In this document: positions 9,971-10,482 of the stretch, in pieces
Numbering within the stretch: position 1 is the first letter of the stretch
Layout: every line of letters starts with the position of its first letter
NCBI RefSeq assembly: GCF_048403405.1
Contig: NZ_CP183130.1
Direction: 5' to 3' (one strand)
Length of the DNA stretch: 16,403 nt
Origin: Escherichia coli
GTDB taxonomy: Bacteria > Pseudomonadota > Gammaproteobacteria > Enterobacterales > Enterobacteriaceae
Notes under the pieces: generated by a model
What the model saw: the letters and a program-made list of their open reading frames with translations, nothing else
The model's database searches: none
What the model was told of the DNA's origin: nothing
Program-made: the position numbers and the translations under genes

Positions 9971-10482
9971 TATGAAATTAATAACCAGGCAAGCAGAGGA
10001 TGGCGTGGTTTCATCCTAAGATTGATAGGGGTTAACCTGTAAGATAAAAGGACCGTGTTTACACGACGTCTCTGAAGGGCTTCGTTTGGGAAACGGACAA
10101 TATCTAACTGACGAGGAAATTAAATAAGGGTTTAAAAATTAACGCACCATATATTATACACAGTATATAACGATTCAGATATCGTCACCAGGATATGCCG
10201 CGTCAGCGGCATGGAAGGCGGCACTCTGTTGTTGCATATGACACAGGAGTAAAACCGCCGAAGCCCGGCGTAAGCCGGTACGGACTGATAGATTTCACCT
10301 TACCCATCCCCAGCCCTGCCAGACCATACCCGTTTTCAGCCATGAGAGAGCTTCTGTGCGCGGTCGGAGTGGTCCCGACGAGGGTTTACCCGAAGTCGGG
10401 GCGTATCTCCGCGTTAGCGGGCCGTCAGGGCCGCTTACGAGCGTGTACGGAGGACTTCCAGCCAGAAGACTGGCAGCGATGA

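Follow-up and report, generated by a model that had tools for sequence, protein, structure and literature searches.

The GC-rich, hairpin-dense block at 10195-10482 of the stretch of Escherichia coli DNA analysed here (16,403 nucleotides in all, hereafter the window) raises the question of what such a sequence does beside a plasmid origin. The original prediction had offered two candidates, a single-strand initiation or primosome assembly site and a structured RNA. The answer that we consider most likely from the sequence is that the block is non-coding, and that host primase starts copying the IncK plasmid there.

The block is markedly GC-rich, as had been claimed, with a G+C content of 0.604 against 0.376 at 9900-10194 and 0.488 for the entire window (composition count and profile). 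Judged by its sequence it is the "repA4 region" of the RepFIIA/I-complex replicons, carried here by an IncK plasmid. Conservation in related replicons, on which the original prediction had made its proposal depend, was found: the block is shared at 95% identity with R100-like IncFII replicons, in which a minus-strand ORF bears the annotation RepA4, it is present in 4192 of the 5426 complete E. coli genomes as well as on plasmids of many other Enterobacterales, and it matches more than 5000 plasmids. Read from the repA side, the order of elements is a DnaA box (10864-10872), a Ter site (10484-10506) and the hairpin element (10195-10444), and the Rfam scan of the window placed PK-repZ at 12084-12232, all of which bears out the placement of the block beyond the origin and distal to repA. 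The predicted limits fared less well, in that the start at 10195 holds but the structured element ends at 10444, the limits 10195-10482 being merely the ends of a chance ORF. Linkage to repA extends beyond the window: in 99 of 125 elements with enough flanking sequence an IncFII/I-type repA lies 356-1212 bp away in the same relative orientation, and tblastn of RepA around the elements gave RepA identities down to 33% with the core of the element unchanged. In the window a 1-nt insertion shifts the repA stop. The features on which the argument draws are the following.

10195..10212, + strand: hairpin H1, ATGCCGC-GTCA-GCGGCAT, with the mini-hairpin motif GCGTCAGC (10200-10207) made up of its loop and closing pairs
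10217..10260, + strand: long-range helix H2, with arms GGCGG (10217-10221) and CCGCC (10256-10260) and a variable inner hairpin (10224-10249)
10265..10278, + strand: hairpin H3, CCGGC-GTAA-GCCGG, containing the mini-hairpin GCGTAAGC (10268-10275)
10279..10357, + strand: C-rich, weakly structured spacer between the hairpin clusters, from composition and folding
10316..10318, + strand: conserved 5'-CTG-3', predicted primase start opposite T10317, in the context CCCTGCCAGACC (10314-10325)
10358..10444, + strand: ultra-conserved two-arm core of 87 nt, with outer stem GCGC/GCGT
within 10358..10444, + strand: core arm A, CGGAG..[GTC.CGAC..GGG-TTTA-CCC..GTCG.GGC]..CTCCG
within 10358..10444, + strand: core arm B, CGT.AGCGG.CC-GTCA-GG.CCGCT.ACG, with the alpha3/St-1-type mini-hairpin GCGTTAGC (10411-10418)
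10399..10421, + strand: 23-mer GGGCGTATCTCCGCGTTAGCGGG, the most conserved part of the element
10484..10506, - strand: predicted Ter (Tus-binding) site, 5'-ATTATGAATGTTGTAACTACATT-3', just beyond 10482, corresponding to terRR of R1
10612..10631, + strand: degenerate second, inverted Ter (counterpart of terRL), TTTTTGTTGTGGTTTCAGAA in the window against TTTTTGTGTGTTGTAACTAAAGT in the R100-like sequence L006
10864..10872, - strand: DnaA box TTATCCACA, the repA-proximal edge of the origin, outside the element

Existing annotation would make the block a gene or the remnant of one. IncFII records annotate a 128-aa "replication-associated protein RepA4" over the equivalent of 10294-10680, PGAP calls a 46-aa protein on the minus strand (10203-10343) in p85, and the + strand ORF at 10195..10482 encodes 95 aa. 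That any of these three accounts for the block is scarcely credible given how they behave among the homologues. The + strand ORF is rich in arginine and proline (13 Arg, 11 Pro), its sole Shine-Dalgarno-like AGGA ends 1 base before the ATG, and a frame of at least 80 aa is kept in only 1 of 46 homologues. On the minus strand a frame of at least 100 aa crosses the core in 7 of the 46, three have no minus-strand frame there at all, and in the window the RepA4 frame is broken, so that neither strand carries a conserved ORF. Moreover, 1- and 2-base indels are common inside the element, and its substitutions are compensatory in stems, with no codon-position pattern. The original judgement that the block holds no credible ORF was thus sound. 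That the region has a function in vivo is suggested by the IncF plasmid pEC958, in which transposon insertions in "repA4" were not tolerated (PMC4398462).

The two hairpins named in the original prediction, H1 and H3, are both present, and with 46-49 distinct homologues from other genera as the covariation sample the stems of H1, H2, H3 and the core were all found to covary. The stem of H1 also occurs as ATGCGCC/GGCGCAT, as ATGCGC/GCGCAT and, with compensatory changes, as ATGACGC/GCGTCAT, and in a further variant, ATGTCGC/GCGGCAT, the resulting T.G wobble exists on the + strand only. The arms of H2 occur in five Watson-Crick-compatible forms (GGCGCC/GGCGCC, GGCGG/CCGCC, GGCGAC/GTCGCC, GGTGCC/GGCACC and GGCGCT/AGCGCC). 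H3 has stems CCGGC/GCCGG, GCGGC/GCCGC and CCCGC/GCGGG, with loops that interchange among GTAA, GTCA, GCA, GTA and GAA. For this left domain each hairpin was extracted by flanking anchors, homologue by homologue; RNAalifold on a MAFFT alignment had been tried and recovered H2 only, because changes in loop length misaligned both H1 and H3. In the core 99.5% of cells were paired, 5 pairs showed changes on both sides, and the covariation score was reached by 0 of 500 shuffles. A third predicted pairing, GTCGG...CCGAC, stood only in part: the sequences are there (GTCGG at 10363-10367 and 10395-10399, CCGAC at 10375-10379), but by covariation the partner of CCGAC is the downstream GTCGG and not the upstream copy.

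The strand on which these hairpins would act was addressed most clearly by counting a single motif. The DNA mini-hairpin GCG(N)NAGC binds SSB poorly, and it occurs in hairpin I of phage G4 (GCGAAAGC) and in St-1/alpha3 (GCGTTAGC; PMC13037366, alpha3 sequence checked). In the window the motif occurs three times on the + strand and not at all on the - strand (P = 0.0035), and the same bias is seen per element in the 46 homologues (3.07 on + against 0.11 on -) and in 99 metagenome elements (2.95 against 0.08). The mini-hairpins expected of a G4-type single-strand initiation signal (ssi) are therefore on the template strand. The core agrees, its + strand folding to -25.9 kcal/mol (z = -3.3) against -19.9 kcal/mol (z = -1.55) for the - strand, and with RNA parameters the + strand of the core folds better in all 46 homologues. 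A 331-nt stretch folds better than dinucleotide shuffles on either strand (z = -2.6), and z-scores from folding just the left domain of the window give no preference for the + strand, which counts against a G4-type reading. We also tried G.T against A.C stem cells for strand assignment and set them aside as weak (4:3 in the core and about 4:0 in the left domain, two fixed G.T pairs excluded).

Covarying hairpins that fold better on the + strand with RNA parameters, many of them with GNNA loops, would equally fit a structured non-coding RNA transcribed from that strand, which was the second of the original candidates. The check proposed for it, an Rfam/Infernal scan, returned nothing at the gathering threshold when Rfam 15 was searched with the block, and only noise at E values up to 10. 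Upstream on the + strand we found no conserved promoter-like site, and between IncK and IncFII neither the left flank nor the left neighbouring gene is conserved. The loops, moreover, alternate freely between GNNA and GNA closed by C-G, the pattern of DNA mini-hairpins, and the position and orientation of the element are tied to repA, the origin and Ter. We regard an RNA as very unlikely.

Single-strand initiation of the G4 type also calls for a start triplet. In G4 priming begins at the T of a CTG on the 3' side of the stem-loops, the hairpins keep SSB away and so place the primase, and primase and SSB suffice for priming (PMC6783573). Between the hairpin clusters the spacer is C-rich (C27, T19, A18 and G13 of the 77 bases at 10279-10355) and folds poorly on the + strand, and within it the CTG at 10316-10318, 3' of H1-H3 on the + strand, shows 96-100% identity per position among the homologues. 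Taking the G4 primer start from its sequence annotation and the alpha3 decamer from the alpha3 sequence fetched by accession, we compared both with the aligned position. The G4 decamer CTGCAAAGCC is exact in 8 of 46 homologues and 9 of 99 metagenome elements, the alpha3 decamer CTGCTAAGCC in 7 and 22, respectively, and one or the other, and with it the start context of the G4 group, is present in 15 of the 46 and 31 of the 99. One homologue equals alpha3 at 19 of 20 bases, a score that 0 of 500 shuffles attained. The window's own decamer, CTGCCAGACC, agrees with the phage decamers at 7 of 10 positions, and these 3 differences count against the G4-type reading. The exact start nucleotide is uncertain, since the window has a further CTG at 10285-10287 and R100-like sequences have CTGs directly behind H3 and behind the core; those after H3 (10285-10287) and after the core were considered as the start and rejected, neither being conserved across genera.

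The position of this CTG relative to the origin can be compared with that in R1, whose oriR is 188 bp (PMC5883639). In the window the CTG lies about 365-368 bp past the end of the equivalent 188 bp. The R1 start is reportedly about 380-400 bp downstream of oriR (Masai and Arai in 1989, Bernander et al. in 1992), with which this distance agrees. The core had been our first choice as the location of the G site, and was dropped once the conserved CTG context and the distance from the origin were found.

Similarity to the phage signals lies in the parts just described. Like the G4 and alpha3/St-1 oric, the element would be a single-stranded DNA signal with GC-rich hairpins bearing GCG(N)NAGC mini-hairpins and a CTG start in the context C-C-T-G-C-(A/T)-A-A-G-C-C, and H3 is identical to CGGCGAAAGCCG of G4 hairpin I at 11 of 12 bases. 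Overall homology was not seen, nor is it required of plasmid members of the class: Smith-Waterman comparison of the window with the G4 oric scored within the shuffle range, the likeness extending no further than the start decamer and hairpin loops, and a blastn search of 50,697 phage records with the element found one chance match only. With the G4 oric as the blastn query, the phage collection yielded G4-like phages alone, and not alpha3. The plasmid element is about twice as long as the phage signals, its nearest 5' hairpin is ~37 nt from the CTG compared with 3 nt in G4, and it would act on a plasmid strand exposed by helicase rather than on a packaged single-stranded genome. The three hairpins of G4 are all 5' of the CTG and alpha3 has none 3' of it, whereas the plasmid element has a large conserved cluster there, the core, which the G4 model does not predict.

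On the anatomy of the sequence, its conservation and covariation, the strand bias, the similarity to the G4 and alpha3 start sites and the linkage to repA, all of them observed directly, we judge it likely that leading-strand synthesis of a RepFIIA/I-complex replicon starts at this block, which would act in cis as a G4-type primase-dependent ssi ("G site") and be adjoined by a terminator of the terRR type. Its position is that of the G site in RepFIIA replicons, on the template of the leading strand and downstream of both the origin and ter. Of the original proposal, the single-strand initiation site is thus favoured by the conserved CTG in its G4/alpha3 context, the 5' hairpins, the strand-specific motif and the position beyond ter; primosome assembly is less so. 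Primosome assembly sites of the phiX174 type are likewise hairpin-rich single-strand initiation signals found on plasmids, but they need PriA, PriB, DnaT and DnaB/C and lack the signature of CTG plus mini-hairpins, and the strand-specific features here point to the primase-only (G4) type rather than to a PriA primosome assembly site.

Given the place of the core, it is reasonable to ask whether H1-H3 and the CTG form the G4-type primase signal by themselves and the core does something else, whether as a further site of priming or of primosome assembly, as one for loading or pausing, or as one bound by a conserved host protein. Both G4 and alpha3 are free of hairpins on the 3' side of the CTG, which is where the core sits, and conservation in the core (80-100%) far exceeds that in the left domain (40-70%). 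The 23-mer is exact in 55 contigs of species-representative genomes from many Enterobacterales genera, among them contigs from plasmids of Pantoea, Erwinia, Yersinia, Klebsiella, Serratia, Pectobacterium and Edwardsiella, and is nearly invariant also among homologues retrieved by flanking anchors alone. Some loci (L004, L008, L009, L037 and L055) keep the core with a different left domain, and the minus strand of arm B, GTAAGCGGCC, contains a single copy of AAGCGG, a hexamer common to PriA (n') recognition sites. Against two devices, the match to those sites is one hexamer; no second conserved CTG follows the core; and the core shares its + strand mini-hairpin motif with H1 and H3 and folds better on that strand in every homologue. 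The spacing between the CTG and the core is fixed, which suggests a single unit: 83 nt separate the CTG and the 23-mer in 25 of 36 genome homologues, and in 70 of 94 metagenome elements the distance from the CTG to CGGAG is 49 nt. We hold two separate devices, in whichever of these forms, to be improbable.

A G4-type start site could still include a core with a role of its own, and we put forward tentatively, as a rather unlikely possibility, that the core is a distinct module read sequence-specifically on single-stranded DNA by a conserved host replication protein. Phage origins have nothing at its place, 3' of the start CTG, and the 23-mer is unchanged across plasmids whose RepA is only 33% identical. 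Such a module may serve DnaG and SSB as a docking platform, or may allow the initiating helicase and primase to work beside a Tus-bound Ter.

The Ter site just beyond the block had been missed by the original prediction. It contains the only GTTGTAAC core in the window, and its non-permissive (G6) side faces the origin. It has that core, G at position 6 and T-A at positions 18-19, as in the consensus, and compared with TerB, 18 of 23 positions are alike, G6 and the entire core included. These are features of the 23-bp Tus-Ter traps (terRL/terRR of R1, R6K, chromosomal TerA-J), with their invariant GTTGTAAC core and G6, and the site is oriented to stop a fork that has circled the plasmid; it is a neighbour of the hairpin block and not a component of it. 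The second, inverted site at 10612-10631 is probably non-functional in the window to judge by its sequence, leaving one intact Ter where R1 has two. A review (PMC10331603) puts the two ter sites of R1 past the minimal oriR but ahead of the point where the leading strand starts. The site also presents its non-permissive face to DnaB coming from the origin, and the G4-type reading leaves helicase access unexplained.

The proximity of Ter admits a further alternative, that the fork trap is the sole functional feature and the hairpins are incidental, the GC-rich flank being conserved by hitch-hiking or plasmid recombination. Very different plasmid backbones do have the block at 90-95% identity, which suggests frequent exchange, and Ter does adjoin it. 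However, the conservation maximum is in the core and not in Ter. Of 99 metagenome elements, 81 have GTTACAAC conserved ~45 nt rightward of the core, and the other 18 lack the Ter core but retain the element. Covariation, a strand-specific motif and a conserved CTG context are likewise unexpected under hitch-hiking, and we find this explanation highly implausible.

If the block is the G4-type leading-strand start, the following sequence of events can be proposed. RepA(RepZ) and DnaA would open the origin at ~10685-10872 and DnaB would unwind toward lower coordinates, as is established for R1 and ColIb. The + strand, the leading-strand template, would become single-stranded and coated with SSB, save that the GCG(N)NAGC mini-hairpins of the GC-rich hairpins should bind SSB poorly. 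The clusters H1-H3 (10195-10278) and the core (10358-10444), bracketing a C-rich spacer of ~80 nt, may phase SSB, and this phasing would keep the CTG at 10316-10318 accessible. DnaG alone would then prime opposite T10317, with the primer growing toward lower coordinates, and Pol III would take over, the fork circling the plasmid once and away from repA. On its return the fork would cross repA and the origin and be arrested by Tus at Ter 10484-10506, about 170 bp short of its own start; such arrest, a role established for R1, would prevent strand displacement and rolling-circle multimers.

An element of this kind is already known, having been described earlier in R1, R100 and ColIb-P9, and the find, although real, is for that reason an ordinary one. 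G4-type primase-dependent ssi signals downstream of the origin were reportedly found in these three plasmids by Masai and Arai (1989), Nomura et al. (1991) and Tanaka et al. (1991); they are called G site in R1, ssiA in R100 and ssi in ColIb-P9. The window shares with them the replicon family (RepA/RepZ with the PK-repZ control element) and the order repA, CIS, origin, ter and start site, and when compared by replicon region shows no evident functional difference. In sequence, the IncK copy lacks the CTGs that R100-like replicons have right after H3 and the core (GTACTGA becoming GTACGGA). The underlying biology was worked out around 1988-1997, and the present result is therefore not a new discovery.

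Its meaning lies rather in how widespread the element is. It is present in most E. coli genomes by way of IncF and I-complex resistance and virulence plasmids, whose stable maintenance appears to require this cis-acting site. Pipelines for genome annotation give it the wrong name, "RepA4" or "hypothetical protein", which its recognition as a priming signal with a terminator would correct. Conservation this extreme, among Enterobacterales plasmids whose initiators diverge, is the mark of a constraint imposed by the host, and the element is possibly a common weak point of the IncF/I-complex replicons.

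The window belongs to a conjugative plasmid of the I-complex (IncK / IncI-gamma type), and many E. coli plasmids are 100% identical to it over 10100-10600, for example p85 (NZ_CP023362), typed IncI-gamma/K1. Given that the oriR of R1 is 188 bp in size (PMC5883639), counting this length with the perfect DnaA box places the origin equivalent at ~10685-10872, and the GC-rich, hairpin-dense block therefore lies beyond the origin and distal to the minus-strand repA, where the original prediction had put it.

Features of the element and its surroundings (window positions)
10195-10212, plus strand: hairpin H1, whose stem occurs in four or more versions, one of them the compensatory ATGACGC/GCGTCAT
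10217-10221 with 10256-10260, plus strand: long-range helix H2, with five Watson-Crick-compatible versions
10265-10278, plus strand: hairpin H3, with stems CCGGC/GCCGG, GCGGC/GCCGC and CCCGC/GCGGG
10279-10357, plus strand: C-rich, poorly folding spacer directly 3' of H3
10316-10318, plus strand: CTG in the spacer, 96-100% conserved, context CCCTGCCAGACC
10358-10444, plus strand: two-arm core, closed by GCGC/GCGT
10399-10421: 23-mer GGGCGTATCTCCGCGTTAGCGGG, exact in 55 contigs of species-representative genomes
10484-10506, minus strand: Ter ATTATGAATGTTGTAACTACATT, containing the sole GTTGTAAC of the window and retaining G6 and the whole core
10612-10631: terRL equivalent (second, inverted Ter), degenerate, TTTTTGTTGTGGTTTCAGAA in the IncK window and its closest relatives
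10864-10872, minus strand: perfect DnaA box TTATCCACA
12084-12232, minus strand: repZ pseudoknot control element (Rfam)
below that control element, minus strand: repA (repZ)

A one-mismatch DnaA box, TTATACACA (10154-10162, plus strand), sits just left of H1 at the location corresponding to 'DnaA-box3' (TTATACATG) of mini-R1, mutation of which raises copy number slightly (PMC5883639). Near the 3' end of repA (10953-11041, minus strand), the window also differs from the otherwise identical p85 by a 1-nt insertion at 11041. The repA stop codon (11039-11041 of the window in p85 terms) is thereby lost, and RepA gains ~29 residues, reading on into the CIS region as far as 10953; the difference may be genuine or stem from a sequencing error.

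The block was indeed GC-rich, with a G+C content of 0.604 (10195-10482) against 0.376 in the left flank, the three hairpins named in the original prediction were all present, and its folding stability exceeded that of shuffled sequences on both strands (z ~ -2.6). The long frame, described as Arg/Pro-rich and without an RBS, proved to be a 95-aa ORF of that composition whose sole AGGA stops one base before the ATG. The predicted boundaries are those of this chance ORF; the structured element spans 10195-10444 and is followed by Ter at 10484-10506. That the block is a coding remnant is contradicted by its homologues: among 46 distinct ones, the plus-strand ORF, whose start codon is the ATG in the first hairpin, reaches at least 80 aa in one (and only 29 aa in the R100-like sequence), and a minus-strand frame of at least 100 aa crosses the core in seven, so that neither is conserved and the non-coding assignment stands. 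One- and two-base indels are frequent within the element. R100-like IncFII records label the minus-strand ORF corresponding to window 10294-10680 'replication-associated protein RepA4', and in identical plasmids RefSeq/PGAP calls a 46-aa 'hypothetical protein' (WP_032072206.1; 10203-10343, minus strand) that falls wholly inside the covarying hairpins; both annotations are probably spurious.

The core structure was tested in 49 sequences: 99.5% of its cells were paired and five pairs had changed on both sides; the covariation score was reached by none of 500 shuffles, and pairing in slid controls was only 33-55%. The core was partly fixed by the search pattern, and its invariance in the genome set is therefore partly by construction. 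This objection does not apply to our metagenome scan, which used anchors flanking the 23-mer on each side without requiring the 23-mer itself, and which yielded 99 distinct full-length elements with the 23-mer still almost invariant. The 7-mers after H3 (10277-10284) and after the core (10443-10450) are identical to each other and switch in parallel from one lineage to the next: both read GTACGGA in the window, GTACTGA in R100-like sequences and GTTAC in the Pantoea type. The model proposed below does not account for this paired change.

Hairpin I of the G4 oric holds GCGAAAGC, and St-1 and alpha3 hold GCGTTAGC, instances of a mini-hairpin motif (GCGNNAGC or GCGNAGC) that is extraordinarily stable as DNA and binds SSB poorly (PMC13037366); the G-H intergenic region of alpha3 does contain GCGTTAGC. 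The window element contains the motif three times on the plus strand (GCGTCAGC in H1, GCGTAAGC in H3 and GCGTTAGC in the core) and never on the minus strand; shuffles averaged 0.36 occurrences (P(3 or more) = 0.0035). The same bias was found per element in the 46 genome homologues (3.07 plus vs 0.11 minus) and in the 99 metagenome elements (2.95 vs 0.08). Hairpin loops swap GNNA for GNA and the reverse, always with a C-G closing pair, and the core loop varies only among GTTA, GTCA, GTAA and GTA, a pattern of the DNA mini-hairpin type and not typical of RNA. The core folds better on the plus strand in 46/46 homologues (z in the window, -3.3 plus vs -1.55 minus). Motif bias, loop pattern and core folding thus argue that the functional form is single-stranded plus-strand DNA. 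The structured RNA also put forward in the original prediction fared poorly by comparison, since the loops are DNA-type, the suggested Rfam scan gave no match in the block, no promoter-like site was found upstream on the plus strand, and the upstream context is not conserved.

G4 priming starts opposite the T of a CTG located 3' of the stem-loops (PMC6783573; G4 annotation), which keep SSB off and position primase (PMC6783573). At the aligned position of the spacer CTG, the exact G4 decamer CTGCAAAGCC occurs in 8/46 genome homologues and 9/99 metagenome elements, and the exact alpha3 decamer CTGCTAAGCC in 7/46 and 22/99, respectively. Around the start, one Klebsiella plasmid agrees with alpha3 at 19/20 bases, which 0/500 shuffles equalled, and the spacing from CTG to core is fixed. 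R100-like sequences have further CTGs directly behind H3 and behind the core, which were rejected as starts, not being conserved across genera. The spacer CTG lies ~368 bp past the oriR equivalent in the window and 364 bp past it in the R100-like locus, close to the ~380-400 bp from oriR that Masai & Arai (in 1989) and Bernander et al. (in 1992) reportedly found for the R1 start. With its plus-strand mini-hairpins and conserved G4/alpha3-type CTG, the element supports in kind the first candidate of the original prediction, a single-strand initiation site. For a PriA-type assembly site the sole support is one hexamer, and it sits on the other strand.

More than 5000 plasmids match the block at ≥90% identity (95% for R100-like IncFII replicons), and it is present in 4192/5426 complete E. 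coli genomes, almost always plasmid-borne; the exact 23-mer extends to Pantoea, Erwinia, Yersinia pestis, Klebsiella, Serratia, Pectobacterium, Edwardsiella and others. Where flanking sequence sufficed, 99 of 125 elements had an IncFII/I-type repA at a distance of 356-1212 bp and with the same relative orientation, RepA identity being down to 33% in some; the element is thus tied to this replicon family, yet constrained by something besides the initiator. The other 26 (~1/5) had no such repA within 2.5 kb, and may represent relics, or the signal may serve in other settings. One, on a 267-kb E. coli plasmid (L005, 2400-2700), lies without Ter between a RelE/ParE pair and an ATPase + SIR2 pair; another (L161) adjoins hchA, and a third (L023) a 359-aa ORF (no NCBIfam match) and a FinO gene.

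By the Tus-Ter 'C6 lock' model (PMC10331603), the non-permissive side of the window Ter faces the origin. In R1 the counter-clockwise fork is halted at once at terRL, whereas the clockwise fork circles the plasmid and halts at terRR, and loss of the ter system gives rolling-circle forms and multimers; both sites lie between oriR and the start site, a placement that does not settle the helicase block considered below (PMC10331603). The window shares the R1 order of origin, terRL equivalent (here degenerate), terRR equivalent (10484-10506, intact) and element; R100-like plasmids read TTTTTGTGTGTTGTAACTAAAGT at the terRL equivalent, and about half of the homologues have an exact GTTGTAAC core on that side. 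Because the ter order matches R1, the productive fork would run toward lower coordinates with the plus strand as leading-strand template, so that motif analysis and fork direction independently pick the same strand. That Ter alone is functional, with its flank hitch-hiking, is at odds with conservation being highest in the core and with the absence of the Ter core from 18/99 elements.

We propose that RepA and DnaA would open the origin and DnaB unwind toward the element, where SSB would coat the exposed plus strand but spare the two clusters of stems bearing mini-hairpins, which flank the C-rich spacer and would keep the CTG accessible. DnaG alone would then prime opposite T10317, the putative start nucleotide, Pol III would extend away from repA, and after one round Tus at 10484-10506 would halt the fork with ~170 bp still to go to its own 5' end. 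An origin-loaded helicase (origin 10685-10872) should be halted by Tus at 10484-10506 before reaching the priming signal, and the model does not account for exposure of this signal with a Tus-bound Ter. Mutations in the repA4 region, as Jiang et al. reportedly found in 1993, destabilise NR1 despite intact ter repeats. In the IncF plasmid pEC958, 'repA4' does not tolerate insertions (PMC4398462), which supports the model in vivo.

The element is most likely the known G site (ssi, a G4-type primase-dependent single-strand initiation signal), together with the ter region ('repA4'), of RepFIIA and I-complex replicons. Sequenced relatives share 95-100% identity with the window copy, so it is already known. 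Our analysis adds three details that older papers may or may not contain: an architecture of two clusters, a mini-hairpin signature specific to one strand, and a G4/alpha3 start decamer conserved across Enterobacterales plasmids. The core, the most conserved part, lies 3' of the CTG, where phage origins are without structure; we read it as a 3' boundary phasing SSB or as a primase platform, although it may, less probably, have a separate function.
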